From Prochlorococcus sp. AG-409-N21 (GTDB lineage Bacteria; Cyanobacteriota; Cyanobacteriia; PCC-6307; Cyanobiaceae), in contig QCKK01000002.1 in assembly GCA_003215415.1 (NCBI GenBank), positions 49,914-113,913 of the forward strand: 64,000 nucleotides of DNA, written 5' to 3'. Each line of letters opens with the position of its first letter. The first letter of the stretch is position 1. Positions 22,137 through 45,573 of the stretch are shown here, piece by piece. A model generated the notes under the pieces. It did not search any database, had not been told where the DNA came from, and worked only from the letters and a program-made list of their open reading frames with translations. The position numbers were made by a program, and so were the translations under genes.

Positions 22137-22146
22137 ATTTCACCAA

Positions 22147-23663: not shown

Positions 23664-23690
23664 TTTAATTGAAATAGCTTTGTTTGTTCA

Positions 23691-24785: not shown

Positions 24786-24901
24786 GGTTTTTAATTCCTA
24801 ACTACTGTGCAAATAATGAAAACTTAAAAAAAAAGCAAATGTTTCTTTTGGCTTAATGCACTAAAAGGGCACTACTGTCTTAAATGAGATAGAAAATCAA
24901 A

Positions 24902-25897: not shown

Positions 25898-25910
25898 ACA
25901 TTCTTTCCTA

Positions 25911-26492
25911 ATGATTAATCCTAATTTCCTATTGAATATAAAAAGTACATTGCAATGGTGGAAGTTAAGAAAGAAACTAAAATCAATAAAAGTTCTAGTT
26001 CTTGATGTAGACGGAGTTCTTACAGATGGAGGATTATTTTATAATTCAAAAGGTGAAATAAGTAAACGCTTTAATGTGAAAGATGGTCTGGGAATTCGTC
26101 TTCTGCAAAATACTGGTATAGAAGTAGTTTTTCTAAGTGGAGGCAAGGGAGATGCTACCGAATCAAGAGCTATTGACCTAGGCATTACTCATTGCATAGT
26201 CAATGCGAAAGACAAACCAGAGGCTATAGAGGAACTTTGTAATAAAACCGGAATCTTTCCAAACAGAATTTTATTTGTAGGAGATGATCTTAATGATCTT
26301 GCACTTAAGAATAAAGTGGCTTTATTAATAGCAACATTTGATGCAATGCCTTCTTTAAAGAAAAACGCAGATGCAATTTTAAATAAAAATGGTGGCGAAG
26401 GTGCAGTCAGAGAAATTGCCGAAAGATTATTAAAAGCACAGGGGTCTTGGAAAGAAATTAACAACAAAGGCTGGAGAGATAGAAATGACTAG
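25911..26492 (+). CDS. kdsC: 3-deoxy-D-manno-octulosonate 8-phosphate phosphatase (HAD-IIIA)
   Basis: LVLDVDGVLTDG, KDG and VGDDLNDL motifs, in Kdo gene context. Confidence 0.8.
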   Translation: MINPNFLLNIKSTLQWWKLRKKLKSIKVLVLDVDGVLTDGGLFYNSKGEISKRFNVKDGLGIRLLQNTGIEVVFLSGGKGDATESRAIDLGITHCIVNAKDKPEAIEELCNKTGIFPNRILFVGDDLNDLALKNKVALLIATFDAMPSLKKNADAILNKNGGEGAVREIAERLLKAQGSWKEINNKGWRDRND

Positions 26493-26546
26493 AGTCAAAG
26501 ACTTATGAAGATATAAGTTAAGAAAAAGTCGAATCTAATTTAAGTA

Positions 26547-27374
26547 TTAAGTTCCACTTTCAGAAGCATGTGCTATTCGCCTAGCTTGTTCAAGTTGGTC
26601 ATAAGTGTCTACAGAAAGAGATTCTCCATCTACTATAAAAGTACCAATCTCTATCCCTGCCTCAATTAGTCTCAACTGTTCCAACCTCTCGATTCTTTCA
26701 AGTGGTGAATCTGGAAGATTGTTCCAACCCTGAAGTACGTCACCTCTATATCCATATATTCCTACATGTCCCCAAAATGTTGCTTTAGATGACCAATCTT
26801 CAGGTTTTTCACCACGTACATGGGGCAATGCAGACCTTGAAAAATATATTGCTCTTCCATCTTGACTTAATAACGTTTTTACAACATTTGGATTATGAAT
26901 TTTATCAGGTGGCAACCGATAAATTGGTGTCAAAACAGAAGGAGTTGGAGAACGATTTACAAACTGATCTGCCATTAGATCAATGATCTTTGGATCAATA
27001 AATGGTTGATCTCCCTGAACATTAATTATGACACATTCCGATAAATCTAGCGAAGAATTCTTCTGACCTTTCCCTTTCAATTCGTCTTTGGCAATCAATA
27101 ACAGGTCATCCGAAACTGAGGCAATTCTTTGACTACCTGATTCACAATTAGGACTTGTGAGTAAAGCAGGAAATCCCAAATCCTTTGCCAGATCAACCAA
27201 GAGTTGATTATCAGTACAAAGTACAGTCGCAATAGGTTGTTGAGCACATGAACATCTCTCAAGTACTCTTTGCAACATAGGTTTTCCTGATATATCAGCA
27301 AGAACTTTATTAGGCAGTCTGCTGGATTCCAATCGCGCTGGAACTGCAACAATAATGGTAGGAGTTTCTTTCAT
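26547..27374 (-). CDS. kdsB: 3-deoxy-manno-octulosonate cytidylyltransferase (CMP-Kdo synthetase)
   Basis: VAVPARLESSRLPNKVL, NVQGDQPFI and LEQLR motifs. Confidence 0.88.
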   Translation of the reverse strand: MKETPTIIVAVPARLESSRLPNKVLADISGKPMLQRVLERCSCAQQPIATVLCTDNQLLVDLAKDLGFPALLTSPNCESGSQRIASVSDDLLLIAKDELKGKGQKNSSLDLSECVIINVQGDQPFIDPKIIDLMADQFVNRSPTPSVLTPIYRLPPDKIHNPNVVKTLLSQDGRAIYFSRSALPHVRGEKPEDWSSKATFWGHVGIYGYRGDVLQGWNNLPDSPLERIERLEQLRLIEAGIEIGTFIVDGESLSVDTYDQLEQARRIAHASESGT

Positions 27375-27389
27375 GGAAGTATAAAAAGT

Positions 27390-28094
27390 TTAGTCCCAAA
27401 GCTTAAAGGCATCATCTCGAGACGCATACCATTCTGCCGCCAAGACACCACCCATTGTTCGTTGATCTAAGAACCAAGGACCTCCCAGAGTCCAATGCAA
27501 CATTAAAGCGTTGTTACCCTTTGATGAGTCTTGTACAGAAACTAGATGGTTCCAGACTTCTGGCAAATTGCCAATCTCATGATCACCTTTCAGCCAATGA
27601 AAGCGATGCAACTCCAAGCCGGTAGCTTTGTTTATATAGTTAGGGGTAAGTAAATTGCATTTAGTGCAATTTAAAAGCATTAGTGAACTCCAATTCTTCT
27701 TGGGGTAGGGACTTTGTACTTCACCTTGAAACTTGACACTCTCTTGAGGTTTATGATCATGTTGCACACACATAACAGCATATTTCTCATCTCTTAAATC
27801 CCATAATTGGCGAATATCACCACGACACAACATATCGCAATCCATGAAGATTGCCCAACCCTCATAATTGACAAGATGGGGAACTAAAAATCGTGTAAAT
27901 GAAAAAGCTGTACTTTGCTTAGGATCTTTTTCTCGCCAATAAAGACCTTGCTTTTCTAACTGCGGTGTAACCAATGGAGTTATTGAAAGAGGAGCAGTGG
28001 TGTTTTGATAAAGGCTATCTATCAAAACATTGGTGGCAGCTCTTTCACGAGGGTCATACCCTATAAAGATAGGAATAGTTTTATTCATTTCCAA
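27390..28094 (-). CDS. Nucleotide-diphospho-sugar transferase, GT8-like
   Basis: GT-A-like pattern with RFLVPHL and a DxD motif (FMDCDMLC). Family-level guess only. Confidence 0.5.
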   Translation of the reverse strand: MEMNKTIPIFIGYDPRERAATNVLIDSLYQNTTAPLSITPLVTPQLEKQGLYWREKDPKQSTAFSFTRFLVPHLVNYEGWAIFMDCDMLCRGDIRQLWDLRDEKYAVMCVQHDHKPQESVKFQGEVQSPYPKKNWSSLMLLNCTKCNLLTPNYINKATGLELHRFHWLKGDHEIGNLPEVWNHLVSVQDSSKGNNALMLHWTLGGPWFLDQRTMGGVLAAEWYASRDDAFKLWD

Positions 28095-28534
28095 AGATTA
28101 CGAGCATTACCCACAATTTTGGCAACCTCCTTCGGATCAATCGAATTAGAAGTGCCATTGCAAACATTTCGATAATGATCTGCTAGAGCCCAAGCTTTGG
28201 TGGCGAAATCCCCCTCAAACCTTGGTATTAAATGAAGATGAAGGTGCTTTGCGCCTTCACCAAATGCTATCGAATAGATGCGATCGCATCCTGTGAGTTC
28301 TCTGACCAAGCATGAAGCACGCTTCACTGACAATCCCCAATCAGATGCTTCTTTCTGATTAAATTCCACTGGTCCACCTATATGTCGAACAGCATCTAAT
28401 ATGAGCCAACCCAAAAGAGGTGAAGGATCTGGGTGGTGGCGCAATATCCACAATTCATTGCGGCCTATTTCCCAATTTTCTTGCGCTAAATAATCATGGT
28501 GAATTTTGCAAATATCACAATCAAGAAAAGCCAT
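28085..28534 (-). CDS. HIT family (histidine triad) protein
   Basis: HLHLHLIP histidine-triad motif. Overlaps the downstream GT8-like gene by 10 nt. Confidence 0.7.
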   Translation of the reverse strand: MAFLDCDICKIHHDYLAQENWEIGRNELWILRHHPDPSPLLGWLILDAVRHIGGPVEFNQKEASDWGLSVKRASCLVRELTGCDRIYSIAFGEGAKHLHLHLIPRFEGDFATKAWALADHYRNVCNGTSNSIDPKEVAKIVGNARNLWK

Positions 28535-28710
28535 ATATTCCGAAAGTTAGTAATTCCATAATCCCATAAAATATCTAATGATCATCTGTAAATAATTAAA
28601 AGCTAATATCAAGCATCAATTCACGGGTGCGAAAATCTAAAAAGATATTCAAGTAATAGGTATTTCCTTTACCAATAGCTAGTTAACGTTATAAAATTAA
28701 ATCAATATAG

Positions 28711-29571
<861 letters not shown>

Positions 29572-30135: not shown

Positions 30136-31038
30136 TCATTCAAAAATTTTGTTGTCCATTACCTTAGTTAAATAACCAAGTTCCTTAAGTGTATCTTGTA
30201 TATGAGACTTTATGAGAAATTCATCTTTAATCCCATGCTTGCTAGAATTCTCCACTGGCAAATGGTGGAAAGGAACAATCTTTTCACAAGGCAATCCAAT
30301 CAACGAAAATACATCCTGAGAAGATTTTAATTGTTGAAAACCAAATGACTTGATATATCCTATTCTTTGCAGTTGATTCAGAAAATCCTTATGCAATACT
30401 GTACTAATTGAAGATGCATTTAATTGAGATGATTCCAAATGAATCTGTTTCTCAATATATTCTGATGGAGTTATGCTCCTATAATTAAGTTGTCTTCTCT
30501 GTAAGCAGCATCTATTAAACTTTGAAACAAGATGAGGTATAGGATCCCTTAAACAAAGACTAATTAAAGGAGGCTCTGAAGTGGCAATTTTAATTGCCTG
30601 ACCCAAAATAAATATTGGGAACGGGCCTTGTTTGTTACTAGAACGACAACTAATTGAAGCACCTGTCTCACTCAACATTTCACTTGAGATAAAAATATTT
30701 TTATAATCTCTACCATGATTTAATAAGAGAACTATCGATTCAACTAAATATTCAAATAAGTCTGGTGCTTGTTCAGAATATTTGGTCGCAAGTATAGACA
30801 ACGGAAAGATAAGGTCTCTAGCTAAGCCTCCAATGTCATCTTTGTTTTTACTATAATAAGTTAAATGTTCCTTAATATCAGGGCGTGTACTAATTACTTT
30901 CCCTGGACTTTGCTGCTTTATAGATGATTTATAGGCCTTCTTCGTAACAAGAAGATTAGACTTTATCTCTGGGAAAAGTGACTTTTGAAGCGTCGTTGTT
31001 GCGGTTCGAGAAGTCCCAATATGAGTTATAACTGCCAT
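30136..31038 (-). CDS. Hypothetical protein, possibly sulfotransferase-like
   Basis: The N-terminal IGTSRTATTTL resembles a 5'-PSB loop, and CLRDPIPHLVSKF resembles the 3'-PB motif (compare LLRDPVDRTLSQY and IIRDPIEVSNSLY in the two clearer sulfotransferases at 61-63 kb). By-eye call only. Confidence 0.4.
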   Translation of the reverse strand: MAVITHIGTSRTATTTLQKSLFPEIKSNLLVTKKAYKSSIKQQSPGKVISTRPDIKEHLTYYSKNKDDIGGLARDLIFPLSILATKYSEQAPDLFEYLVESIVLLLNHGRDYKNIFISSEMLSETGASISCRSSNKQGPFPIFILGQAIKIATSEPPLISLCLRDPIPHLVSKFNRCCLQRRQLNYRSITPSEYIEKQIHLESSQLNASSISTVLHKDFLNQLQRIGYIKSFGFQQLKSSQDVFSLIGLPCEKIVPFHHLPVENSSKHGIKDEFLIKSHIQDTLKELGYLTKVMDNKIFE

Positions 31039-31113: not shown

Positions 31114-32262
31114 ATGAGCATGGAAAATCCTGAAAGTACTACTAGTAACTCGGAGACCAAGTTTAAGCCAAAGCAGATCTTTACAAAAGCTGCGGATCGT
31201 TGGCTTGCGAAAAATCGGTCTTTGGTACTAAGGCAAACCCCTATATGGGCTCAGAGTCTAGTTGGGATTGGAGTAAGCCTAGGAGGAATTGTCATTTTAG
31301 GAGCCTCACTTTTCCGCATTGATGAGGTCGTTACTGTATATGGACAACTAGAGTCATTAATTGGTCTTACTGAAGTAAAGACTCCATCAGGAGGAAAAGT
31401 CTCAGAAGTATTTTTTAGAGATGGGCAACTAGTAAAAAAAGGTCAGTTACTTTTAAGGTTTGATACAAGGCAAGCCTCATATGATAAGGAAACAATGACA
31501 AGACTAATTGAACTCGAAAAAAAAGATCTGACTGGCAGGCTTGATATTTTAAGGTCAAGAGAAGATGTATTAGAACAAAAACTCAAAACCAATAAGCAAA
31601 TTACATCATCACTGAAAGAACTTGTAGAGAAAGGCGCCTACCAAAGGGTACAGTACTTACAACAACTAGATACACTTTACGAAATCAAAAGCCAACTATC
31701 GAATGTTCAACTTGACATGAAGCGTACAAGGCTTGAATCTGAAAAGGCTCTGGGCCAATACAAAAATAGATTAAATAATGCAGACATCCAACTGCAATAT
31801 CAAACTGTATTAGCACCCGTAAATGGTGTTGTTTTTGATCCCAAAGTAGGTGTGGCAGGTGTAATCCAATCTGGTCAAACAATTTTAAAATTAGTGCCTC
31901 AGGAAGGCCTTAAAGCAAAAGTTGTTGTTGCAAATAAAGACATAGGTTTTGTAAAAACAGGTATGGAAGCAAAAGTAAGAGTTGATGCCTTTCCTTTTAC
32001 TCGGTATGGAGAGCTGGTTGGCAAAGTCACCAGCATTGGTGCTGATGCACTACCCCCAGATGAAAAAATGTCTTTTTATCGATTTCCTGTGCAATTAAGT
32101 TTAAATAAGTCTTACTTAGAAGCTGAAGGGGTGAAAATACCTTTAAGAAGCGGAATGGCGGTCACAGCCAACCTAAAATTGCGCGATAAAAGAGTAATTA
32201 GCTTAATATCAGACATACTGGTAGATCAAACTGAAACTGTAAAGTCAATACGACAACAATAA
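31114..32262 (+). CDS. HlyD-family type I secretion membrane fusion (periplasmic adaptor) protein
   Basis: One N-terminal TM helix (LVGIGVSLGGIVILGASLF), a long coiled-coil region, and lipoyl/beta-barrel motifs (GQLLLRFD, VLAPVNGVV). Confidence 0.85.
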   Translation: MSMENPESTTSNSETKFKPKQIFTKAADRWLAKNRSLVLRQTPIWAQSLVGIGVSLGGIVILGASLFRIDEVVTVYGQLESLIGLTEVKTPSGGKVSEVFFRDGQLVKKGQLLLRFDTRQASYDKETMTRLIELEKKDLTGRLDILRSREDVLEQKLKTNKQITSSLKELVEKGAYQRVQYLQQLDTLYEIKSQLSNVQLDMKRTRLESEKALGQYKNRLNNADIQLQYQTVLAPVNGVVFDPKVGVAGVIQSGQTILKLVPQEGLKAKVVVANKDIGFVKTGMEAKVRVDAFPFTRYGELVGKVTSIGADALPPDEKMSFYRFPVQLSLNKSYLEAEGVKIPLRSGMAVTANLKLRDKRVISLISDILVDQTETVKSIRQQ

Positions 32263-33095: not shown

Positions 33096-33917
33096 TTGCC
33101 TGGCATTCTTTCATGTATGACCATCGATACACCACAATCCGCTCCTCTTTTGGAACCAGATCCTGAAAAATGGCTCACTCCTCAGCGACTGGAGCAACTG
33201 AATCAACAAATAGAAGGAAGCAAGAAACTTCTTAAGCAAGCAGGCTTATTAAGGGCAGCACTTGGATATTGGGTTAGATGGGAGGTATCCCTTGAAGCCA
33301 ATTGGGGTCAAGATGAAGAAAACACAATCCTGGATGACTTAGAGAAAGACTGGCTTGAGAAAAGCAGTCAATCAGAACAAAAACAAACTTACTCGGACAA
33401 TGAATTGAGAGAAAAGTTAAGAGTGTCTCCAGGTTCACTTGTTTGGGCTCGGGAGCAATGGTCTCATCGGTTGGAATCAATCTATTTAGAACGAAAAAGT
33501 CAACTAGATCAAGCAAGTTGCAGATTAATTAGAGTTAGAGATAAAGGCATCGCACTAGAGCTGCATCACCGCATCAAAGCTGGCGAAACTTCCTTTGAGC
33601 AAGCTGCAAGAGAATATGGTCAAGGATCTGAAAGAAGAAATAATGGTCTTATACCAATGCAGACATTAGAAAAAATGCCCTTTGGTCTTGCGCCACTGCT
33701 AGTTCGATTAGAACCGGGCCGCTTAAGTCTCCCAATGCGCCTTGGGGAAGGTTTTTGTCTCGTTCAATTAGAGAGTTTTAAGCCCAGCCAATATGACAAA
33801 GCAACAGAAGAACTGCTTCTTGCAGAACAGCTGAGACTCTGGATCGATTCAGTGGTTAATTATCTCTTGTCTGTCTTAAGTTCAGAAGAACAAGCACAAG
33901 TTGAGACGAGCCATTGA
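33096..33917 (+). CDS. Parvulin-like peptidyl-prolyl isomerase domain protein (SurA/PpiC-like), no signal peptide
   Basis: The C-terminal half (RIKAGETSFEQAAREYGQGSERRNNGL...GRLSLPMRLGEGFCLVQLE) matches the rotamase pattern. The track start is TTG 33096, and an in-frame ATG at 33117 (MTIDTPQ...) is the more likely start. The stop overlaps the ABC gene start. Confidence 0.5.
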   Translation: MPGILSCMTIDTPQSAPLLEPDPEKWLTPQRLEQLNQQIEGSKKLLKQAGLLRAALGYWVRWEVSLEANWGQDEENTILDDLEKDWLEKSSQSEQKQTYSDNELREKLRVSPGSLVWAREQWSHRLESIYLERKSQLDQASCRLIRVRDKGIALELHHRIKAGETSFEQAAREYGQGSERRNNGLIPMQTLEKMPFGLAPLLVRLEPGRLSLPMRLGEGFCLVQLESFKPSQYDKATEELLLAEQLRLWIDSVVNYLLSVLSSEEQAQVETSH

Positions 33918-36901
33918 CGGCGAGCAAACAAGATCATTGGTTGCAAAGTTTGCAAAAGCAACTTGCGGCCCAAAGACCATTCCAACTCTTACCAGAGGAA
34001 GAGTTATCGGCCTGGTTGAATGATGCCAAGAAAATTAATTTCTCCACAGGCGAGCTGTTACTTCGACCTGATGAACTAAGTGACAGCATTTATTTGGTTC
34101 TCCAAGGAAACGTAAGACTTATCGGGATGGGGGATGGGGTTGATCTTTATGGGCAAATTTCTCTTGATAAACGAGGCCCAGGTCAACTTCTTGGGTGGAT
34201 AGGACTCCTAAGAGGTGAAGCTTGTGAATATGTTTTAGCCAGTAATGATGTTTTTGTATTAGGACTACCATCTGCAAGATTTATACATCTGTTTCTTAAA
34301 TACCCTGACTTTGCAAAATATTTCTACGAGCTAGAAAATCCGCAAGAAACTTATGTTGTTGCTTCTTCATTCGCAGATTTACAACCTAAGCATGAAGAAG
34401 CCTGGAAAAAAGAAATGCTTGACAGGATTAAACAAGCAAGAGCAACAAGCATTAACCCAGAAGATAAATTTGAATCACTTCTAAATCTAGAAGATGGTTG
34501 GAATTGGCATATTAGTACTCCTAAAATTCCTGGATATCCAACAGGGACAATAGTTAGAGAAAAAGACTTTCCTTTACCAAACCTAACAGGCTTCCAATTA
34601 CCCTATAGGTTGGTTTGTTTACCAAACTCACAAATACTAATTACTGAAGAAGATAATGAGGAACATATTATCAATGCAGTTGATATTGACCACAACCCAG
34701 TAGACCTTGAACAATTAGGCATTTTAGAAAAAGACCTTTTAGAGGCAGAAGACAGATTTCCTGTTGTCAGAGGTAAAGGAGCAGTCGGCCAAGCAGTAGC
34801 TGCTTGCGAAATGATATCTCTTTATCAAGAAGTACCTTTTCGGCGAGACAATGTACGCAGAGCTTTTGAAGATAATGAAAGGAGAGGGAAAGGAATATCA
34901 CTTGAATTAATGGGATTTGTATGTGAAGCACTTCAAATGAAATGTCAGTTAGGGCAAACAGAAGGGCAATTTATTAGTAGTGTTGAAAGCCCAGCAATTA
35001 TGGAACTTGATAACGCTTATGTTGTCTATTTTGGTATTAGTAAAGGCAAAGCATTAATAGCTAATCCTGAAAAAGGAATGCAACATATTCCTTTAGAAGA
35101 TATAAAAGAAAAATTAGGACATGAATTTCGATTTGTTTTACCAAGAAGAGTTTCTGCAACTCCTAAGACAAGATTTGGATGGAATTGGTTTACTCCGCTT
35201 TTAAAGAAATACAAAACATCCTTAGTCCTAGTCTTTGCGTCATCATTATTGGCACAATTATTTGGATTAGCGATACCATTATTACTTCAACAAATAATTG
35301 ATAAAGTACTGGCTCAAGGTAATTTAAGCAGTCTAAATATACTCGGCTCTGCCATGATTACAATGGCCTTATTCCAAGGGGTCTTACAGGCGCTAAGAAC
35401 ATACATATTTGTTGATACAACAGACAGAATGGATCTTACTCTTGGTACGGCCGTTATTGATAGATTACTTTCCTTACCATTAAAATATTTTGAAAAAAGG
35501 CCTGTAGGCGAATTAAGTCAGAGGCTAGGAGAATTAAATACAATAAGAGGATTCCTTACAGGAACAGCCTTAATAACGGTTTTAAATATAATTTTCGCCA
35601 TCATATATCTAATAGTTATGTTATTATATTCTCCATTTTTAACAGCAATAGCGTTAAGTACCTTTCCACTATATGTTCTATTAGTTTTTGGAGTAGCTCC
35701 AATTTATAAGTTTCTAATTAGAAAAAGAGCTGTTGCTCAAGCCAAAACGCAAAGTCATTTAATTGAAATTCTAGGTGGAATTCAAACAGTTAAAGCACAG
35801 CACTTTGAATTAACTGCCAGGTGGAAATGGCAAGATAGATATAGACATTTTGTATCTGAGGGTTTCAAAAGTACTGCGCTAGGCGCCACCGCAGGCGAAA
35901 TAGGCAAATTCCTAAATACTGTGAGTGGTTTATTAATACTTTGGGTTGGAATGATGTTAGTTCTTAAGGGTGAATTTAGCCTCGGAATGCTTATCGCATT
36001 TAGAATAATTGCTGGAAACGTAACTGGACCACTTCTTCAATTAGCAGGTCTTTACCAAGGATTCCAACAAGTATCTCTATCAATGGAAAGGTTAGGGGAT
36101 ATCATCGATCAAAATCCAGAATTACAAAATCCAGATGAAATAGGTCAAATTGCTCTCCCACCAATTAAAGGAGATGTAAGGTTTGAAAATGTAAGGTTCA
36201 GATTTGGGAAAGAAGGGGCATATCAACTTGATGATGTAAGCGTAAATATAGAAGCAGGAAACTTTGTTGGAATTGTTGGTCAAAGTGGAAGTGGAAAAAG
36301 TACTTTAATGAAATTACTTCCTAAGTTATATCAACCAAAATCTGGAAGAATCTTTATAGATGATTATGATATTGGGAAAGTTGATCTAAGCAGTTTAAGA
36401 AGACAAGTTGGAATTGTTCCCCAAGATTCACTCCTATTTGAAGGGACTGTTTCAGAAAATATTGCACTTAATGACCCACAAGCCACAACAGAAACAATCA
36501 TTGAGGCAGCACGAATAGCCTGTGCGCATGAATTCATAATGGGTCTAGGCCAAGGATATGCAACTCCTATCGCAGAAAGAGGTGCAAACCTTTCAGGGGG
36601 GCAAAGACAAAGGATTGCTATTGCAAGAACAATCCTTTCCAATCCTCAATTACTAGTAATGGATGAAGCAACCAGTGCTCTTGATTACGATACCGAGAGG
36701 CAACTATGCTTAAACCTTCAGGAATGGGCTGAAAAGCGAACTGTTTTCTTTATTACTCATAGACTCTCAACTATTCGCAATAGTGATGTGATTTTAGTTA
36801 TGCATGAAGGTCGTTTAACTGAAACAGGAAATCATGAGGCTCTTATGAATGAAGGTGGAAGATATGCAGTGCTTTATAAACAACAAGATTCATCAGCTTA
36901 A
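33914..36901 (+). CDS. Type I secretion ABC exporter: N-terminal cNMP-binding-like domain + C39-like peptidase domain + 6-TM domain + ATPase
   Basis: Four regions are recognisable. (1) aa ~22-135, cNMP-binding fold pattern (FSTGELLLRPDE...IYLVLQGNVRL...). (2) aa ~283-412, C39-like region. (3) A TMD. (4) An NBD with Walker A GQSGSGKST, signature LSGGQRQR and Walker B LLVMDEATSALD. The only start that preserves the domains is TTG, overlapping the upstream stop. Confidence 0.9.
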   Translation: MTASKQDHWLQSLQKQLAAQRPFQLLPEEELSAWLNDAKKINFSTGELLLRPDELSDSIYLVLQGNVRLIGMGDGVDLYGQISLDKRGPGQLLGWIGLLRGEACEYVLASNDVFVLGLPSARFIHLFLKYPDFAKYFYELENPQETYVVASSFADLQPKHEEAWKKEMLDRIKQARATSINPEDKFESLLNLEDGWNWHISTPKIPGYPTGTIVREKDFPLPNLTGFQLPYRLVCLPNSQILITEEDNEEHIINAVDIDHNPVDLEQLGILEKDLLEAEDRFPVVRGKGAVGQAVAACEMISLYQEVPFRRDNVRRAFEDNERRGKGISLELMGFVCEALQMKCQLGQTEGQFISSVESPAIMELDNAYVVYFGISKGKALIANPEKGMQHIPLEDIKEKLGHEFRFVLPRRVSATPKTRFGWNWFTPLLKKYKTSLVLVFASSLLAQLFGLAIPLLLQQIIDKVLAQGNLSSLNILGSAMITMALFQGVLQALRTYIFVDTTDRMDLTLGTAVIDRLLSLPLKYFEKRPVGELSQRLGELNTIRGFLTGTALITVLNIIFAIIYLIVMLLYSPFLTAIALSTFPLYVLLVFGVAPIYKFLIRKRAVAQAKTQSHLIEILGGIQTVKAQHFELTARWKWQDRYRHFVSEGFKSTALGATAGEIGKFLNTVSGLLILWVGMMLVLKGEFSLGMLIAFRIIAGNVTGPLLQLAGLYQGFQQVSLSMERLGDIIDQNPELQNPDEIGQIALPPIKGDVRFENVRFRFGKEGAYQLDDVSVNIEAGNFVGIVGQSGSGKSTLMKLLPKLYQPKSGRIFIDDYDIGKVDLSSLRRQVGIVPQDSLLFEGTVSENIALNDPQATTETIIEAARIACAHEFIMGLGQGYATPIAERGANLSGGQRQRIAIARTILSNPQLLVMDEATSALDYDTERQLCLNLQEWAEKRTVFFITHRLSTIRNSDVILVMHEGRLTETGNHEALMNEGGRYAVLYKQQDSSA

Positions 36902-36928: not shown

Positions 36929-37636
36929 ATGAAAGAGGCTTCAAATCTAGAGAATAAGAATGAAGAAGGAATATGTTTTTCATCCAGCTATCTTTCCTGG
37001 ATCACCCGTACAGAATTAAGTAATGGAATATTTAGACTAGATTCAGTATTAATTCATAGATCAAACAAACAAGAAGAAACTACCTTCGTTCTTTGCAGCG
37101 GGGTGCCTGCAGGTCGAATGTATGCTGACACTGGTCCTCTCCTAAAAACTCCAAAATATTTTTATCAATTCATAGGTGGGTCAAAGACGCATAAAATCAT
37201 TCGGACACCCGCTAAGGAAAGCAATCAAAAATTGTGCGAAGATTCTCACTCAGAAAATAAATCTATTTTCCTGGAATTGGACTTTCATTTGAATAAGAAA
37301 AAAGCAAAAGCAATCAAAGCGGATGCTTTAATTGAACTATCTTCTTTAAATACACCAGTAAATTTGTGCATTTACATAAAAAGAAATCATGAAAGCATTT
37401 ATATTGAATCTCCTTTAAAGCATTGGAATTTTCTTTCAAGAGAAAGAAAATGGCAAGTTGAAAGTGCCTCAATTCTTTGGCCCTCAAATCTTGATAATTT
37501 CTGCAAGAATGCAAATTCTTCTTTCTTAATACCCGTTTGCCTACATGCCAATAAATCTAATATGATAACAATTTCTGGTGAACGCATTAAATGCCATGAA
37601 ATAGCAGCTGACTTGTCCTTCTTAGAATTGCAATGA
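36929..37636 (+). CDS. Hypothetical protein (no recognisable motif)
   Basis: A 235-aa ORF, 27 nt after the ABC gene. Its stop overlaps the next start (ATGA), so it is embedded in the operon. Confidence 0.5.
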   Translation: MKEASNLENKNEEGICFSSSYLSWITRTELSNGIFRLDSVLIHRSNKQEETTFVLCSGVPAGRMYADTGPLLKTPKYFYQFIGGSKTHKIIRTPAKESNQKLCEDSHSENKSIFLELDFHLNKKKAKAIKADALIELSSLNTPVNLCIYIKRNHESIYIESPLKHWNFLSRERKWQVESASILWPSNLDNFCKNANSSFLIPVCLHANKSNMITISGERIKCHEIAADLSFLELQ

Positions 37637-38592
37637 ATTCACAATTAAATCCAACAAAGATTGCTTTCATTGGAGCAGGTTATATGGCTTCAGAACATTT
37701 GAAGGCATTTTATGATCTTCCAAATGTACATTTATCTGGAATCTTTACTCGAACAATAGACAAAGCACTGGCCCTAAAAAGTGTATATCCAGATCTTGAA
37801 ATATATGATTCAATTAATTCTTTATATTCAAAAACAAAAGCAGATCTTGTTGTAATTGCAGTGCCAGAATTGGCCTGCCTAAGTGTATGTGAAGAAGCTT
37901 TTATATACCCATGGAAATTGCTCATAGAAAAGCCTGTAGGCTACAACTTCTCAGAAGCTTTGAAAATTGAAATGCTAGCAAACGAACTAAATTCAGAAGT
38001 ATATGTCGCCCTCAATAGAAGATTTTATTCATCAACTATTCAAGCAATTAATAAGCTTAAAAATCTACAAAGCAATAGATTAATAACAATCTTGGATCAA
38101 GAAGATGCAATTGGTGCGCTTGCCTCTGGACAACCTGAAAAGGTCGTCAAAAATTGGATGTATGCCAATTCTCTTCACTTAATTGATTATTTCTCCATGC
38201 TTTGTCGTGGCGAACATGTCACAACAAAGATTATCGAGCCATGGGAGCCTAAGCGTCCCAAGCCAGTGATGGCTAAGCTTATATTCAGTTCTGGCGATAT
38301 AGGTATATATCAAGGAATCTGGAATGCGCCTGGTCCCTGGAGTGTAGCAATTTCAACAGAAGAATTAAGAATGGAATTAAGACCAATTGAACAACTATCA
38401 TTGCAACAAAAAGGGTCAAGATCTATAGAAATGCAAGCGATTGATCCTTTAGATAATAAATACAAACCAGGCATATATCGTCAAGCTGAAGAAGCGGTTA
38501 AAGCTGCAAGGAACATAAAGAATTCTCTACCAATGCTCGAGGACGCGAATAGAAGCATGTCACTAGTATCCTCCATATATCAAAGTCAATGA
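37633..38592 (+). CDS. Gfo/Idh/MocA family oxidoreductase (PtmF-like position in a NulO cluster)
   Basis: N-terminal Rossmann motif IAFIGAGYMASEH and EKP motif (LLIEKPVG). Confidence 0.75.
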   Translation: MNSQLNPTKIAFIGAGYMASEHLKAFYDLPNVHLSGIFTRTIDKALALKSVYPDLEIYDSINSLYSKTKADLVVIAVPELACLSVCEEAFIYPWKLLIEKPVGYNFSEALKIEMLANELNSEVYVALNRRFYSSTIQAINKLKNLQSNRLITILDQEDAIGALASGQPEKVVKNWMYANSLHLIDYFSMLCRGEHVTTKIIEPWEPKRPKPVMAKLIFSSGDIGIYQGIWNAPGPWSVAISTEELRMELRPIEQLSLQQKGSRSIEMQAIDPLDNKYKPGIYRQAEEAVKAARNIKNSLPMLEDANRSMSLVSSIYQSQ

Positions 38593-39272
38593 GTCTTCTT
38601 GCTGTAATTCCCGCAAGAGGCGGATCAAAAGGAATTCCTCGCAAGAACATTCGCCTTCTTAGAGGTAAACCGCTAATTGCTTACTCTATTGAAGCTGCTC
38701 TAAATGTAGATACAATTGATAGTGTTATTGTTTCAACTGAAGACGAAGAAATCGCTTCTATCGCAAAAGATTATGGAGCAGAAGTTCCCTTTCTCAGACC
38801 CAAAAAACTTTCATATGATGACACTCCTGGAGTAGACCCAGTTTTACATCTACTTGAAAAACTAAAGTCATTTAATGAGATTTTATTACTACAACCAACA
38901 TCACCTCTACGTACTATCGAAGACATTCAAGGGATTATTGAATTTAAGCGCAATAAAAAGTGTCCATCAGCAGTCTCAATTTGCGAGGTCTCAAAACATC
39001 CTTATTGGATGTTGAGACTTTCTCCTTCTGACCTATTAGAGCCATTCATTAGGCACCAATCATTATTCTCATTGCCAAGGCAGCAATTAGAAAAAGCATA
39101 CGTTCCTAATGGAGCTCTGTATATATGTGATATACCTTGGTTAAAAGCACAAGGTAATTTTGTTGGTCCCGAAACTCGTGGTTACTTAATGCCTACAGAA
39201 CGCTCTGTAGATATAGATACACAACTTGATTGGTTGTGGGCAGAGACACTCATGCATAAAGGTAAAGAATGA
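38589..39272 (+). CDS. neuA: Acylneuraminate (nonulosonate) cytidylyltransferase, NeuA/LegF type
   Basis: LAVIPARGGSKGIPRKNI and LLQPTSPLR motifs. Confidence 0.85.
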   Translation: MSLLAVIPARGGSKGIPRKNIRLLRGKPLIAYSIEAALNVDTIDSVIVSTEDEEIASIAKDYGAEVPFLRPKKLSYDDTPGVDPVLHLLEKLKSFNEILLLQPTSPLRTIEDIQGIIEFKRNKKCPSAVSICEVSKHPYWMLRLSPSDLLEPFIRHQSLFSLPRQQLEKAYVPNGALYICDIPWLKAQGNFVGPETRGYLMPTERSVDIDTQLDWLWAETLMHKGKE

Positions 39273-40267
39273 CAAAAATTCTTGTTACTGGAGCTGATGG
39301 TTTCATTGGCTCACATCTTGTAGAAAGTCTACTTGCAAAAGATTTATCAGTAAAAGCTTTTTGCCTATACAACTCCTCAGGAAGTTGGGGTTGGTTAGAT
39401 AGCTTGTCGGAAAAAAATAAATCAAATTTAAATGTAGTGCTGGGAGACATTAGAGATCCTCTTTGTGTACGTGAAGCAATGAAAGATTGTACGCATGTTT
39501 TTCACCTCGCAGCACTAATAGCCATTCCATATAGTTATATGGCACCTGCTAGCTATATAGATACTAATATTCATGGAACTCTAAATATTGTCCAAGCGGC
39601 AAGGGAATTAGGAGTTAAAAGAGTTATTCATACTTCAACTTCAGAGACCTATGGATCAGCTCAATTTGTGCCAATTAAAGAAACACATCCCTTGGTAGGT
39701 CAATCACCATATGCGGCTAGCAAAATAGGCGCAGATCAAATTGCTTTAAGTTATTGGAGAAGCTTTGATACACCAATAACAGTTTTAAGACCTTTTAATA
39801 CTTATGGTCCTCGTCAAAGTTCAAGAGCAGTTATACCAACAATTATTAGTCAAATCGCCTCTGGCAAAAATGAAATTCATTTGGGATCACTAAGTCCAAC
39901 AAGAGACTTTAACTATGTAACAGATACGTGTGCCGCATTCTTATCAGTTATGGATGAAGATGAAGCCATAGGTAAAGTTTTAAATGTAGCGAGCCAATTC
40001 GAAATATCTATTGGTGATACTGCTACTCTCATTGCTGAAGTAATGGGTAAAAAAGTAAAGATTATTGCCGACGAAGAACGAATTAGACCTAGTGGATCAG
40101 AAGTTAATAGACTCTTTGGGGATAGCTCTCTTTTACGAAGCCTTACAAATTGGCAACCATCTTTCGGTGGTAAAGATGGCTTCAGAAAAGGCATTGAATT
40201 AACAGCCAAGTGGTTTGTGAATCCTTCAAATCTAAAGTTTTACAGAGCCAGTCGTTATGCAATTTGA
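39269..40267 (+). CDS. NAD-dependent nucleotide-sugar 4,6-dehydratase/epimerase (LegB-like)
   Basis: ILVTGADGFIGSH, the STSETYG and YAASKIGAD (YxxxK) SDR triad, and operon position. Confidence 0.8.
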   Translation: MTKILVTGADGFIGSHLVESLLAKDLSVKAFCLYNSSGSWGWLDSLSEKNKSNLNVVLGDIRDPLCVREAMKDCTHVFHLAALIAIPYSYMAPASYIDTNIHGTLNIVQAARELGVKRVIHTSTSETYGSAQFVPIKETHPLVGQSPYAASKIGADQIALSYWRSFDTPITVLRPFNTYGPRQSSRAVIPTIISQIASGKNEIHLGSLSPTRDFNYVTDTCAAFLSVMDEDEAIGKVLNVASQFEISIGDTATLIAEVMGKKVKIIADEERIRPSGSEVNRLFGDSSLLRSLTNWQPSFGGKDGFRKGIELTAKWFVNPSNLKFYRASRYAI

Positions 40268-41435
40268 GTCATCATTATTGGCTGCAATTAGCTCAGTTCT
40301 TCCTCCAGATCGTCCAATTGCCCTACATGAACCCGACTTCAAAAATACTGCTGCGCAAAAATATCTAAAAGATTGTCTTGATAGTGGCTGGGTAAGCACT
40401 AATGGTAAATGGGTCAATAGTTTTGAAGAATATTTAACTCAAATCACACAAGCAAAGCATGTAATTGCAGTAACGAATGGAACGGTAGCCCTTCGCCTAG
40501 CACTAACGATAAATGGTGTAATCTCGAATGAAGAAGTAATGATGCCTTCGCTTAGTTTCGTAGCTACAGCTAATGCATGCTCTCATCTTGGTGCAATTCC
40601 ACATTTTATAGATATAGAAAAAGAAACACTTGGAATAGATCCGATTGCACTGCAAGAACGTTTAGATCAGATTGCTGAGAAGAAAAATGATGGGGTCTGG
40701 AATAAGCAAACAGGGAGAAGAATTGCAGCAATAGTAGTTGTACATGTATTTGGACATCCTGCTCAAACAACTAAACTGAGAGCAATTGCCAATTCTTGGG
40801 GTGTTCCACTATTAGAAGATGCTGCAGAAGCTTTAGGAAGCTTTCGTGAAAACATCCATTGTGGAAGATTTGGAAAAGCTGGCATACTTAGTTTCAACGG
40901 AAACAAGCTAATAACTACAGGAGGAGGTGGGGCTCTTTTGACAGACGATGATGAATTAGCCAAACATGCTCGACACATCTCTACAACATCAAAAATTCCT
41001 CATCAATGGAACTTTTATCATGATGAAATTGGTTGGAATGACAGACTCCCTAATATAAATGCAGCTTTAGGAGTTGCTCAACTAGAAGTACTCTCACAAA
41101 GAATATCTGCCAAAAGAAAATTAAATAAGGAATATGCTTATGCAATAAAAGAAATATCTAATGTTGATATAATTTTGGAACCAATCAATTGCACCAGCAA
41201 CTACTGGCTATCTACTATTAAACTAACACATCAAGATCCTCTGCAAGCTTCTGAGCTTCGTTTAAAACTTCTCAAAGAGGCACATTTAAAAGGGCTACTT
41301 TTACGACCGGTATGGCAACCATTGCATCAATTACCAATGTATATTAATGCTCCCCATGGTGATTTATTCAAGACTGAAGATCAAGCATCAAGATTAATTA
41401 ATTTACCAAGCAGCCCACAACTTTTAAAAAGATGA
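40257..41435 (+). CDS. DegT/DnrJ/EryC1 family PLP-dependent aminotransferase (LegC-like)
   Basis: Conserved SFNGNKLITTGGGGALL (PLP-Lys) and GWNDRLPNINAALG. Confidence 0.85.
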   Translation: MQFESSLLAAISSVLPPDRPIALHEPDFKNTAAQKYLKDCLDSGWVSTNGKWVNSFEEYLTQITQAKHVIAVTNGTVALRLALTINGVISNEEVMMPSLSFVATANACSHLGAIPHFIDIEKETLGIDPIALQERLDQIAEKKNDGVWNKQTGRRIAAIVVVHVFGHPAQTTKLRAIANSWGVPLLEDAAEALGSFRENIHCGRFGKAGILSFNGNKLITTGGGGALLTDDDELAKHARHISTTSKIPHQWNFYHDEIGWNDRLPNINAALGVAQLEVLSQRISAKRKLNKEYAYAIKEISNVDIILEPINCTSNYWLSTIKLTHQDPLQASELRLKLLKEAHLKGLLLRPVWQPLHQLPMYINAPHGDLFKTEDQASRLINLPSSPQLLKR

Positions 41436-42025
41436 AACCTTTAATACTAATTGGTGCTGGCGGACATACTCGATCAGTGATTGATGTAATTGAGAAAAGT
41501 GGTATTTGGAATGTAATTGGATTAATTGGATTAAAAGAAGAGATAGGCCGGGAAATTCTTGGTTATCCAATCATCGGTACTGATAATGATCTAATGGTAA
41601 TTAGAAAAAAATGTGACAACGCCCATTTAGCAATTGGCCAACTTCCATCAGCCGACAAAAGAATCCAGTTAGCACATTATTTAAAAAAACTGACTTTTTC
41701 ACTCCCAACTATTATTTCCCCACATGCAATAATTAGTAGATATGCACAATTAGGCGAAGGAAGTTTCATTGGTCATGGTGCCATCATTAATTCCAACGCA
41801 ATCGTAGGCAAAAATTGCATTATTAACAGCATGGCACTTCTAGAGCATGACGCAAAAATTGAAGACTTCTGCCACATAAGTACTGGTGCTTTAGTAAATG
41901 GAGGTGTCCGTATCGGAGCAAACAGCTTTATTGGCAGTGGTGCAATGATAAGGGAAGGTTTGGAATTACCAAATGACACTGTTATTACTGCCCAAAAAAG
42001 GGTAATGGGATGGCCACTGTTGTAA
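41432..42025 (+). CDS. neuD: NeuD/PglD-type hexapeptide sugar N-acetyltransferase (LegH-like)
   Basis: The N-terminal LILIGAGGHTRSVIDV Rossmann-like domain is followed by left-handed beta-helix hexapeptide repeats. Confidence 0.8.
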   Translation: MKPLILIGAGGHTRSVIDVIEKSGIWNVIGLIGLKEEIGREILGYPIIGTDNDLMVIRKKCDNAHLAIGQLPSADKRIQLAHYLKKLTFSLPTIISPHAIISRYAQLGEGSFIGHGAIINSNAIVGKNCIINSMALLEHDAKIEDFCHISTGALVNGGVRIGANSFIGSGAMIREGLELPNDTVITAQKRVMGWPLL

Positions 42026-43026
42026 TTGCAGAAGCAGGTGTAAACCACAATGGTGACATGGCAATTGCCCGTCGCCTAATTGAATGTGCTGCAGAAGCTG
42101 GAGCAGATGCAGTGAAATTCCAAACTTTTTCTGCAACCGATTTAACCACTCCAGAAGCCCCCAAAGCGACATATCAACTCAAAAACGATTGCTCAAAAAG
42201 CCAGCTGGAAATGCTTAAGAAGTTGGAATTGAGCAAAAGTCAATTCCAAGAACTAAAAGAACATTGTCATAAATGTGAAATTGACTTTTTATCAACAGCT
42301 TTTGGGAACTCTCAATTAGAACTATTGCTGCAATTAGGAGTAAGTGCAATCAAGGTGCCCTCAGGAGAGATAACCCATCTGCAATTATTGAGAGGAATGT
42401 CTATAGCCGCGATAACTCACCATTTACCTGTTTATTTATCAACTGGAATGAGTAATTTAGGAGAAGTTGAAGCCGCCTTAAAAGTTTTTCTAGATGCGGG
42501 AGTAAATCAGTCAGACGTGACATTGCTCCATTGCTTAAGTGCTTATCCAGCCCCTCAAGAGCAAGTCAACTTGTTAGCCATGAAAACCCTCGCAGATGCA
42601 TTTTCATGCCCAGTTGGCTACTCAGATCACACACTTGGAATAACAGCTCCAATTTGTGCTGTTTCGTTAGGTGCAAAAGTCATTGAAAAACATCTCACCA
42701 TTGATCAAAACCTTGAAGGACCCGACCATAAAGCCAGTCTCGAGCCAAAATTATTTAAAGCAATGGTAGAAGCTATTCGAAATACTGAAAGTCTTCTTGG
42801 AGATGGACAAAAACGAGCTCAATCTTCTGAACTTGAAACTCGACATGTGGCCAGAAGATCGCTGAGAGCAGCTCATCCGATAAAGAATGGTCAACTTATC
42901 CAACCTCAAGACTTAATAGCCCAACGACCTGCAGATGGACTCAGCCCAATGGCTTATGACCAAATCGTTGGACAAAAAGCAACAAAGGATTATCAAATAA
43001 GTGAGCCATTTGGGTTGATTCCTTGA
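42010..43026 (+). CDS. neuB: N-acetylneuraminate-family (nonulosonate) synthase, NeuB/LegI type
   Basis: IAEAGVNHNGD and KFQTF, metal/PEP site (GYSDHTLG, EKHLT), and a C-terminal SAF domain. Confidence 0.92.
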   Translation: MATVVIAEAGVNHNGDMAIARRLIECAAEAGADAVKFQTFSATDLTTPEAPKATYQLKNDCSKSQLEMLKKLELSKSQFQELKEHCHKCEIDFLSTAFGNSQLELLLQLGVSAIKVPSGEITHLQLLRGMSIAAITHHLPVYLSTGMSNLGEVEAALKVFLDAGVNQSDVTLLHCLSAYPAPQEQVNLLAMKTLADAFSCPVGYSDHTLGITAPICAVSLGAKVIEKHLTIDQNLEGPDHKASLEPKLFKAMVEAIRNTESLLGDGQKRAQSSELETRHVARRSLRAAHPIKNGQLIQPQDLIAQRPADGLSPMAYDQIVGQKATKDYQISEPFGLIP

Positions 43027-44165
43027 GACAAAACCTGATTCCAATAGCAGTATTTACTGGCAGTCGAGCGGAATATGGATTACTACGCCATCTAATAAAA
43101 AATCTTGATTCTGAGCCAAGTATCGATTTGCAATTGATAGTCAGTGGGGCACATTTAAGTAATACTCATGGGCTAACAGTATGCGAAATTAATCAAGATG
43201 GAATCAAACCAAAAGCATTAGTTCCTCTCTCTCTAGACGAAAAATTCATCCCTTCTATGTCAAGTCTTACTGCAGAAGCGTTGAAGGGAGTTGGAGAAGT
43301 TCTTGAAAATCTACAACCTAAAGCATTAATAGTCCTTGGAGATAGATATGAAACATTTGCAGCGGCAAGTGCTGCACATCTTCAAGGAATACCTGTTATT
43401 CACCTGCATGGCGGAGAAGCAACTCATGGAGCTCTAGATGACCGTCTTAGGCATGCAATTAGTCAACTAAGTACTTGGCATTTCACCGCGGCTGAGCCAT
43501 ACAGAGAATGTGTTATTGCAATGGGAGCAGCCTCAGAGCGAGTATTCCAAGTGGGGCCTATGGCTATTGATGGCTTATTGAGCAAACAATTGCTCAATAG
43601 ATCTGAATTTGAATCTCGAACTGGATATCTCTTTAACAAAAGCAATCTTCTAGTTACATATCATCCAGAAACGTTATTAAAAGATAAAGGAATAGAAGGC
43701 TTCAGAATACTTTTAGAGGCATTAGAAATGAAAAATTGCAACATCCTCTTTACCCAACCGAATGCCGATGATGGCGGAACATTTATTGAAACTTTATTGG
43801 ATGACTTTGTCATGAAATATCCAAAACGAAGTTGGAAATTTGCATCTCTTGGCCAAGAGCTATATCACTCAGCACTTCATTTATTTGAAGCAATGGCAGG
43901 CAATTCTTCTAGTGGGCTCATTGAAGCACCGCTGATTGGCCTCCCAGTAGTTAATATTGGCAATAGGCAATCGGGCAGATTGCGACAGGGGAATATATTT
44001 GATATCCCAGACCCCAACTTGATTGTCGTATCAAATGGGATAAGACAGGCTCTGAAGGAAGGAACACGGTCATCTTGGCCTAGACCTGGTATCTCAAAGC
44101 AACTTTCTCCCAGCAAAAGCATCATTGAATGGCTAAAGAATCAAAAATCAAAGGGTTATAACTGA
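43023..44165 (+). CDS. neuC: Hydrolysing nucleotide-sugar 2-epimerase, NeuC/LegG type
   Basis: IAVFTGSRAEYGLL, LGDRYE and HLHGGE motifs. Confidence 0.88.
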   Translation: MRQNLIPIAVFTGSRAEYGLLRHLIKNLDSEPSIDLQLIVSGAHLSNTHGLTVCEINQDGIKPKALVPLSLDEKFIPSMSSLTAEALKGVGEVLENLQPKALIVLGDRYETFAAASAAHLQGIPVIHLHGGEATHGALDDRLRHAISQLSTWHFTAAEPYRECVIAMGAASERVFQVGPMAIDGLLSKQLLNRSEFESRTGYLFNKSNLLVTYHPETLLKDKGIEGFRILLEALEMKNCNILFTQPNADDGGTFIETLLDDFVMKYPKRSWKFASLGQELYHSALHLFEAMAGNSSSGLIEAPLIGLPVVNIGNRQSGRLRQGNIFDIPDPNLIVVSNGIRQALKEGTRSSWPRPGISKQLSPSKSIIEWLKNQKSKGYN

Positions 44166-44203
44166 ACCTTCCATATACACTCCAACTGTGATGACTAAGT
44201 GAC

Positions 44204-45568: not shown

Positions 45569-45573
45569 TTTTC

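Follow-up and report, generated by a model that had tools for sequence, protein, structure and literature searches.

A 64,000-nucleotide stretch of contig QCKK01000002.1 of Prochlorococcus sp. AG-409-N21 (hereafter the window) encodes an ATP-binding cassette (ABC) exporter in which a domain of the cyclic nucleotide-binding (CNB) fold and a domain of the C39 peptidase fold precede the transmembrane domain (TMD) and the nucleotide-binding domain (NBD). This architecture raises two questions: does the protein cleave leader peptides on export, as an active peptidase-containing ABC transporter (PCAT) does, or hold an uncleaved protein cargo with a dead C39-like domain (CLD), as in HlyB; and does its CNB fold still serve a cyclic nucleotide? 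Our results are best explained, with a probability of about 0.78, by the gene encoding the inner-membrane ABC protein of a cyanobacterial type I secretion system (T1SS) of the CLD type ('long' type, Sll1180 family), for which a mechanism can be inferred and a likely cargo named.

The C39-like domain and the exporter core

The exporter open reading frame (ORF; Table 1) is genuine. It starts with a TTG codon overlapping the TGA stop codon of the upstream gene (TTGA, in the context cat-TTGA-cg), and the same start occurs in two Prochlorococcus relatives (loci L001 and L002, see below), in which the frame is open just 1 to 2 codons further upstream and the proteins begin with L-T-S-S-K. The TTG start is thus well supported, and so is translational coupling with the gene before it. 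All four Pfam domains of the protein (cNMP_binding, Peptidase_C39, ABC_membrane, and ABC_tran) scored above their curated cut-offs, so the domain order and approximate coordinates given in a preliminary description of this DNA, which had been made from the letters alone, are right, well beyond chance; between the CNB fold and the C39-like domain lies a region specific to the family. AlphaFold2 models were built for aa 1-429 (mean pLDDT, the model confidence score, 78.7) and aa 280-422 (pLDDT 90.9), and both were searched with Foldseek. The structural matches, together with the Pfam scores, indicated that both N-terminal folds are genuine.

An exhaustive profile search placed the exporter in a large family, with 174 clusters at E <= 1e-30 and 835 at E <= 1e-10. 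The family is visible only by such a search, since a word-indexed protein search with the N-terminal region returned 12 fragments. Residue counts in family columns, as given below, refer to the 150 best-scoring cluster representatives at 50% identity, aligned to the family hidden Markov model (HMM).

The C39-like domain was recognized by the Pfam model PF03412 at aa 294-399 (25.3 bits versus a cut-off of 22). In the Foldseek search, the model of aa 280-422 matched the LahT protease domain with a TM-score (TM) of 0.76 and a root mean square deviation (rmsd) of 2.5 A and the HlyB CLD (3ZUA) with a TM of 0.69; PCAT1, ComA, and a Vibrio C39-like domain were matched as well. The fold was assigned from these two lines of evidence and not from the matches of a CLD-only sequence profile to the Protein Data Bank (PDB), which were weak (E 0.03-0.4) and sufficient for residue mapping.

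The catalytic positions were mapped by a phmmer alignment to HlyB, a MAFFT alignment with HlyB, and alignments of the family profile with LahT and PCAT1; the triad of LahT is formed by Cys27, His101, and Asp117 (PMC6363468). In three independent alignments, the nucleophile column, which holds Tyr9 in HlyB and Cys27 in LahT, was occupied by Gln293 (34790-34792), and there is no Gln 5 to 6 residues upstream of that column. The His column fell on Tyr369 in the alignment with HlyB His83 or on Ala368 in those with LahT His101 and the PCAT1 His (35015-35020), a register ambiguity of one residue. In every alignment, the Asp column (LahT Asp117 and the HlyB Asp) was occupied by Asn384 (35063-35065). 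The preliminary description had read Ala/Tyr, with the same ambiguity, and Asn at these last two positions, and both readings were borne out. Its suggestion that a possible catalytic Cys is retained in GQAVAAC did not stand: this residue, Cys298, is not the nucleophile, because its counterpart in HlyB is Leu14, five positions beyond the nucleophile column, and because it lies well inside a predicted helix (aa 289-305). Column 298 is a hydrophobic core position that varies in the family (C 40, F 29, L 20), and Cys298 was ruled out as a retained nucleophile on all three grounds.

The same columns were then compared across the family. At the nucleophile column (293), the residues were E 54, A 15, S 14, Q 9, and G 7, with a Cys in 1 of the ~110 sequences that cover it. 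At the His column (369) they were P 41, F 18, L 10, and Y 8; the sole His counted belongs to the HlyB reference row, and none was found in a family member. The Asp column (384) is mixed (H 24, D 17, S 13, V 11, N 5). Since the nucleophile column is all but devoid of Cys and the His column devoid of His across the family, the loss of catalysis is a whole-family property and not local decay. As judged from these aligned sequences, the C39-fold domain, which has lost the nucleophile, the His, and the Asp, is non-catalytic. Together, the three substituted columns in this protein and the family-wide loss of Cys and His support, more strongly than could be seen from the letters alone, the assignment to the cargo-docking, HlyB type that the preliminary description had proposed.

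The rest of the exporter is complete and HlyB-like. ABC_tran was matched at aa 772-921 (E 7.7e-33), and the NBD has a Walker A motif (GQSGSGKST, 789-797), the LSGGQ signature (893-897), a Walker B motif followed by the catalytic Glu (D917-E918), and the H-loop His (H949), all in columns invariant with HlyB. The best match among solved structures was HlyB (PDB 7SGR, E 4e-148 over aa 295-991), and the top NCBIfam model was TIGR01846 (type_I_sec_HlyB, 667.6 bits), with the models of bacteriocin and NHLM exporters 230-300 bits below it. The protein thus has what characterizes the HlyB class: similarity across the CLD, TMD, and NBD, a C39 fold without the catalytic Cys, and a HlyD-type partner. E. 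coli HlyB (7SGR and 3ZUA) shares the CLD fold and the loss of the nucleophile with the window protein; it differs in keeping its His and Asp, where the window protein has lost all three residues, and in having neither a CNB domain nor the ~140-aa middle region. PCAT1, ComA, and LahT are alike in the C39 fold (TM 0.70-0.76) and in the TMD/NBD class (E ~1e-86), whereas their Cys/His/Asp triad reads Gln, Ala, and Asn here and no GG-leader substrate genes are adjacent.

A characterized relative is Sll1180 of Synechocystis sp. PCC 6803 (BAA18265.1, "HlyB family", 1011 aa), to which the window protein is 41% identical over aa 22-991. Both proteins have the same four Pfam domains, and both genes adjoin one for a HlyD-type adaptor. 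In the profile search, Sll1180 was represented by the match P0058 (E 3.7e-54), the representative of the 90%-identity cluster that holds it. P0058 has Ala and Leu in the nucleophile and His columns. The Sll1180 locus differs from that in the window in having no rotamase gene, and its adaptor, of the HlyD/AprE type, is encoded downstream and is longer (583 aa). In the passage of PMC11594277 that cites Agarwal 2018, Sll1180 with Sll1181 and the TolC homologue Slr1270 is described as the export route of the S-layer RTX (repeats-in-toxin) protein Sll1951. Export of an S-layer RTX protein is known from that passage only for the Synechocystis protein, and an OEP-family gene lies ~8 kb from sll1180.

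Export partners and the candidate cargo

Relatives of the exporter gene were collected by a pattern scan of one genome per species with a trimmed alignment, which yielded nine loci (L001 to L009) from Prochlorococcus single-cell genomes, marine Synechococcus, and two metagenome-assembled genomes (MAGs) labelled otherwise. Their ABC proteins are 56-65% identical to that of the window. Synteny of the genes for the HlyD-type protein, the rotamase-like protein, and the ABC protein was seen in L001-L007 and L009; the contig of L008 is short and reaches only ~160 bp upstream of its ABC gene. The two MAG contigs, L004 (PBRQ01000008.1) and L009 (CALRWB020000010.1), are labelled Gammaproteobacteria and Chitinophaga pinensis, respectively, and carry the cyanobacterial-type operon of HlyD, rotamase, and CNB-CLD-ABC genes; the L004 ABC protein is 61% identical to that of the window. 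These contigs are probably misbinned, and transfer of the operon is less likely.

Upstream of the ABC gene in the window, the HlyD-type adaptor gene lies at a distance of 1.6 kb, and the stretch also holds the rotamase-like gene and a methyltransferase gene on the opposite strand. Copies of the adaptor in L001-L007 are 47-66% identical to it and syntenic. The rotamase-like protein (266-273 aa, probable ATG at 33117) is the one whose gene is translationally coupled to the ABC gene. It was matched by Pfam Rotamase (32.3 bits) and by PDB 2M1I (E 0.003), and it has no signal peptide; no NCBIfam model matched either this protein or the candidate cargo described below. In the 2M1I alignment, the two parvulin His positions read Arg (CRLIRV) and Cys (GFCLV), and the protein may therefore be a non-catalytic chaperone. 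It is probably a cytoplasmic helper for the cargo, a role that is speculative.

The candidate cargo is a protein of GGxGND repeats. Its ORF spans 50473..52170 on the minus strand, with a probable ATG at 52128, and the product is matched by Pfam HemolysinCabind (29 bits). The protein is acidic (pI 4.05) and has neither Cys nor a signal peptide, and it contains 13 G(N/A/D)D motifs with a period of ~22 aa, five of which match GGxGxDxUx. The repeats are not tandem nonapeptides: there is a single GGxGND turn per ~22 residues. The C-terminal ~130 aa are conserved (…ATDS..SAYDT…DGSN..YLFV.G…). A total of 158 homologues were found at E <= 1e-5, most of them metagenomic, and the named ones are called 'hypothetical protein' or 'Ca2+-binding RTX toxin-like protein'. 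In each of L001, L002, and L005, a full-length homologue (33-37% identity) is encoded 4-8 kb downstream of the ABC gene, next to the same tetratricopeptide repeat (TPR) and glycosyltransferase (GT) genes; these genomes include both Prochlorococcus and Synechococcus. One family 4 glycosyltransferase (GT4; 52224..53399) and the two TPR genes accompany the ABC gene and the cargo gene in the synteny of L001, L002, L005, L007, and L008. From synteny and protein properties, the GGxGND-repeat protein is most likely the exporter's cargo. The preliminary description had proposed it as the substrate, and the proposal is supported, with the protein still a candidate.

In its nature, the cargo probably resembles Sll1951, SwmA, and oscillin as a glycosylated protein of the cell surface or of an S-layer. 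Glycosylation is probable because glycosyltransferase and nonulosonic-acid genes surround the cargo gene. A review of RTX proteins lists SwmA, oscillin, and Sll1951 as surface RTX glycoproteins of cyanobacteria (PMC3034196). Relative to Sll1951, the cargo of Sll1180, the window candidate is a different and much smaller repeat protein. Copies of the GT4 encoded at 49010..50254, 53-57% identical, adjoin the HlyD gene in L001-L004, and this enzyme probably glycosylates the cargo or another surface glycan.

Thus, we propose the following mechanism. The dead C39-like domain would tether the unfolded cargo in the cytoplasm without cleaving it, as in HlyB; the pump, the HlyD-type adaptor, and a TolC-like outer-membrane channel encoded elsewhere would form the export route; and the cargo, the acidic GGxGND-repeat protein without Cys or signal peptide, would exit C-terminus first, powered by ATP hydrolysis. 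More speculatively, the CNB-like domain might sense a non-cyclic ligand, and the parvulin-like protein might chaperone the cargo.

Several observations weigh against this explanation. The TIGR01846 score lies under the curated NCBIfam subfamily cut-off of 725.55, and the score of the HlyD-type protein against TIGR01843 (171.9 bits) is likewise below its curated cut-off of 208.65. No TolC-like (OEP-family) gene was found among the scanned window ORFs; the outer-membrane factor is probably encoded elsewhere in the genome. The function of Sll1180 transfers by inference only, because the proteins are so modestly identical and the Synechocystis locus is without a rotamase gene. The C-terminal region of the candidate cargo was matched as a secretion signal by no Pfam or NCBIfam model, and the cargo gene lies 13.6 kb from the ABC gene and on the opposite strand.

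This distance, with a 13-kb sugar-biosynthesis block in between, also speaks for an explanation that we consider unlikely, in which the pump is of the CLD type but the GGxGND protein is not its cargo, or not its sole one. Other RTX-like proteins, encoded elsewhere, would in that case be its substrates, and the synteny would stem from membership in one cell-surface island. It is common for a T1SS pump to export more than one substrate, and cyanobacterial cargo genes can be unlinked. Moreover, no homologue of the candidate was found within the examined flank in L003 and L006, the matches in L007 and L008 are weak and partial, and Sll1951 is not listed in the sll1180 locus. Against this stand the full-length homologues near the ABC gene in the three Prochlorococcus and Synechococcus genomes named above, the fact that the candidate has every generic property of a T1SS substrate, and its being the sole RTX-type protein found in the window.

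The CNB-fold domain and the middle region

The CNB fold was recognized by Pfam PF00027 at aa 41-129 (32.2 bits versus a cut-off of 27.5). The N-terminal family profile matched structures of PKA, PKG, and CRP with E values down to 1.4e-7, and the model of aa 1-429 matched the CNB-B domain of PKG with a target TM of ~0.8 and an rmsd of 2.4-2.9 A over 127 residues. The phosphate-binding cassette of this domain is degenerate (Table 1). Aligned with PKG I-beta and T. thermophilus CRP, the domain has Trp95 in the column of the ribose-binding Glu and Ala103 or a 2-residue gap in that of the Arg that binds the cyclic phosphate. A gapless alignment to PKA RI-alpha would place Cys104 in the Arg column. 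Neither Arg nor Lys was found there in any of these three alignments, and neither of the canonical PF00027 contact residues for cyclic nucleotides is thus present in the exporter. The preliminary description had noted the missing Arg and supposed that the domain may no longer bind cAMP or cGMP; the first claim was confirmed and extended to the Glu, and the second is consistent with the loss of both residues and with the analogy to HetC described below.

The cassette region ranks among the best-conserved parts of the exporter family. W95 was counted in 87 of 117 sequences, R100 in 103 of 120, C104 in 70 of 120, and E105 in 112 of 120; at the Arg region, family members have P, A, or S and then Cys. 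The R..PCE pattern is also present in Synechocystis Sll1180, and P0058 keeps R100, C104, and E105, differing in that its cassette Glu column reads Asp where the window protein has Trp. Because the region is conserved in the family as W95, R100, C104, and E105, the pocket looks rewired and not abandoned. From these alignments, the Glu and Arg contacts with the cyclic phosphate are replaced by other residues that the family conserves.

A useful comparison is provided by HetC of Nostoc PCC 7120, which has the same domain order. In HetC, an active cysteine protease, the catalytic residues Cys347 and His420 are retained; its CNB-type domain, which is essential, bound ppGpp (dissociation constant ~59 uM) and GTP, but not cAMP, cCMP, 2-oxoglutarate, or c-di-GMP (PMC10986499). 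It resembles the window protein in domain order and offers a CNB-type domain that does not bind cAMP; it differs in the residues published for its catalytic pair, both of which the window protein lacks (PMC10986499), and in belonging with HetP-associated (group II-like) clusters. By this example, ppGpp or GTP is a candidate ligand of the window domain.

These data bear on whether the N-terminal domain could still sense cAMP or cGMP and gate secretion accordingly, which we regard as very improbable. Cyanobacteria do use cAMP signalling, the CNB fold is clear, and the strong conservation of the cassette in the family argues that the pocket is still used. However, the Glu and Arg that contact the ribose phosphate are gone, replaced family-wide by W and by P/A-C, and the homologous HetC domain bound neither cAMP nor cCMP (PMC10986499). 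For the exporter's CNB-like domain, a regulatory or ligand-sensing role that involves neither cAMP nor cGMP is probable.

A more specific joint reading is tentative, and we think it rather doubtful as a whole. The CNB-like domain would be a sensor with a rewired pocket (R100, C104, and E105, with Trp replacing the ribose-binding Glu) and not a relic; the signal that it reads would be non-cyclic, for example (p)ppGpp or GTP, by the precedent of HetC, or the redox state via the conserved Cys, and it would gate the export of a glycosylated surface-layer protein. The parvulin-like partner, with both catalytic His replaced, would be a dedicated cytoplasmic holdase that hands the unfolded cargo to the dead C39 domain. 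If this were true, the most abundant class of cyanobacterial 'bacteriocin cluster' would consist of surface-protein secretion systems. Cytoplasmic regulation of type I secretion pumps is poorly understood, and the binding of ppGpp by HetC offers a testable lead for the larger sister family.

The middle region that follows the CNB fold consists of helices and a small sheet, which are confidently modelled to about aa 240, and then of a disordered linker (aa 243-281). W198, S201, G211, L229, R232, and the motif LGIxExD are conserved within it. No Pfam model matched this region, and the Foldseek matches of the 429-aa model were dominated by the CNB domain, with nothing on the middle region.

The surrounding glycan island and the bacteriocin label

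The features of the locus are compiled in Table 1. A nonulosonic-acid block of the legionaminic or pseudaminic type (~11 kb, 36929..48065 on the plus strand) begins 27 bp after the ABC gene and encodes NeuB, a WbuX-type amidotransferase, a HisF/H-like protein, a PglD-like acetyltransferase, a DegT aminotransferase, an epimerase, and cytidylyltransferases. It is not found at the corresponding position in L001 and L005, and the sugar block therefore looks like an island that was inserted between the pump and the genes that normally adjoin it.

Table 1. Features of the exporter locus, with coordinates in the window (aa, residues of the encoded protein)
Feature	Position	Strand	Evidence
HlyD-type membrane fusion protein (periplasmic adaptor)	31114..32262	+	Pfam HlyD_3, HlyD_D23, Biotin_lipoyl_2; TIGR01843; synteny
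Parvulin/rotamase-like protein, 'SurA' of group I clusters	33096..33917	+	Pfam Rotamase; PDB 2M1I; upstream in relatives; PMC3140520
Type I secretion ABC exporter, 995 aa	33914..36901	+	ORF; Pfam; HlyB 7SGR; TIGR01846; Sll1180 identity; start conserved in L001/L002
CNB-fold domain, aa ~20-140	33971..34333	+	Pfam PF00027; family profile; Foldseek
Degenerate phosphate-binding cassette GWIGLLRGEACEYVLAS, aa 94-110	34193..34243	+	Alignments to PKG and T. thermophilus CRP; family column counts
Family-specific middle region, aa 141-283	34334..34762	+	AlphaFold2 secondary structure and pLDDT; conserved residues
Non-catalytic C39-like domain (CLD), aa 284-412	34763..35149	+	Pfam PF03412; HlyB/LahT/PCAT1 alignments; AlphaFold2; Foldseek; family counts
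Transmembrane domain (ABC_membrane), aa 438-706	35225..36031	+	Pfam E 1.2e-44; aligned throughout with HlyB
Nucleotide-binding domain, intact motifs	36227..36886	+	Pfam ABC_tran; HlyB alignment
GT4 glycosyltransferase	49010..50254	-	Pfam Glyco_trans_4_3, Glycos_transf_1
Candidate cargo, GGxGND-repeat (RTX-like) protein, 551 aa	50473..52128	-	Pfam HemolysinCabind; properties; synteny
GT4 glycosyltransferase	52224..53399	-	Pfam; synteny
Two TPR proteins	53457..55202, 55235..56299	+	Pfam; synteny

The short gap to the same-strand nonulosonic-acid genes, with which the pump is probably co-transcribed, would suit a pump that exports a glycan or glycolipid, and the cyanobacterial HepA and DevBCA do move glycans or glycolipids (HepA_fam scored 304 bits here). 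We give this explanation very little credence, since HlyB is by far the best match, the only exporters known to dock their substrates with a C39-fold domain are those of peptides and proteins (PMC6363468), and the relatives keep the pump, the adaptor, and the RTX-like gene with no sugar block at this position.

The operon itself belongs to a type described by Wang, Fewer & Sivonen in 2011. Their 'long type' ABC transporter has an extra CAP_ED domain before the C39 domain, and their 'group I' cluster, composed of HlyD, a rotamase ('SurA'), and a long-type ABC gene, occurs in nearly every cyanobacterial genome, including Prochlorococcus, at one or two per strain in the Prochlorococcus listed and as many as three in marine Synechococcus (PMC3140520). 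The window has the same gene content (HlyD, rotamase-like, and CAP_ED-C39-TMD-NBD ABC genes) and is a group I cluster by that definition. The paper treats group I as bacteriocin-processing, yet it reports 0.35 putative precursors per cluster versus >3 in groups II-V (PMC3140520), and here the C39 domain is without Cys and His family-wide. So low a count is what would be expected if group I is not peptide-processing.

An intact triad together with GG-leader peptide genes nearby, which the preliminary description had named as signs of a bacteriocin or lanthipeptide exporter, was not what we found. Helix 1 does not start with a catalytic Cys, the catalytic His and Asp are missing as well, and the space beside the transporter is too small for GG-leader genes, both in the window and in the relatives, although no small-ORF HMM scan was run; in the window, L001, and L005, no gap next to the operon exceeds 107 bp. 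That the HlyD-rotamase-ABC operon is an active PCAT cluster cleaving GG-leader peptides on export, as its label in the literature, its Peptidase_C39 match above the cut-off, the protease activity of HetC with the same architecture, and the GG-leader lanthipeptides made by Prochlorococcus might suggest, is therefore extremely unlikely, and we rejected it on the triad columns (with Cys298 mid-helix and not conserved), the lack of precursor space, the few precursors of group I, and the model scores far under that of HlyB.

The HlyB-like, CLD-type exporter of the window is an ordinary member of a known and near-universal cyanobacterial family, and the gene itself changes little; what is worth keeping is the family-wide loss of the triad and the conserved, non-canonical CNB pocket. 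Many family members carry the NCBI name "peptidase domain-containing ABC transporter". The family-wide loss of the catalytic Cys and His, like the experimentally assigned role of Sll1180, argues for reading the family as one of HlyB-like protein secretion and not of peptidases. Such relabelling is of consequence when Prochlorococcus and Synechococcus genomes are mined for natural products, and the exporter family probably controls the cell surface of the most abundant phototrophs in the ocean.

The stretch from 21 to 60 kb forms a cell-surface glycan island beside mutS. It includes dTDP-rhamnose genes (rmlA, C, D, and B-like), followed by Kdo pathway genes (KdsD-like SIS+CBS, KdsC-like HAD, KdsB, and KdsA) and a GT8 gene (21258..29571). 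After the sugar block come the glycosyltransferases, the two TPR proteins, a BNR protein, and the RTX-like protein. Three island ORFs of 235-311 aa (30136..31038 on the minus strand, 36929..37636 on the plus strand, and 48078..49013 on the minus strand) had no Pfam or NCBIfam match. The BNR-repeat protein, of the sialidase fold (58955..60139, plus strand), is encoded among glycosyltransferases and near the sialic-acid-like sugar genes. The left third of the window is of housekeeping character, with genes for trigger factor, ClpP, ClpX, asd, dapA, RNase J, uvrB, and mutS.

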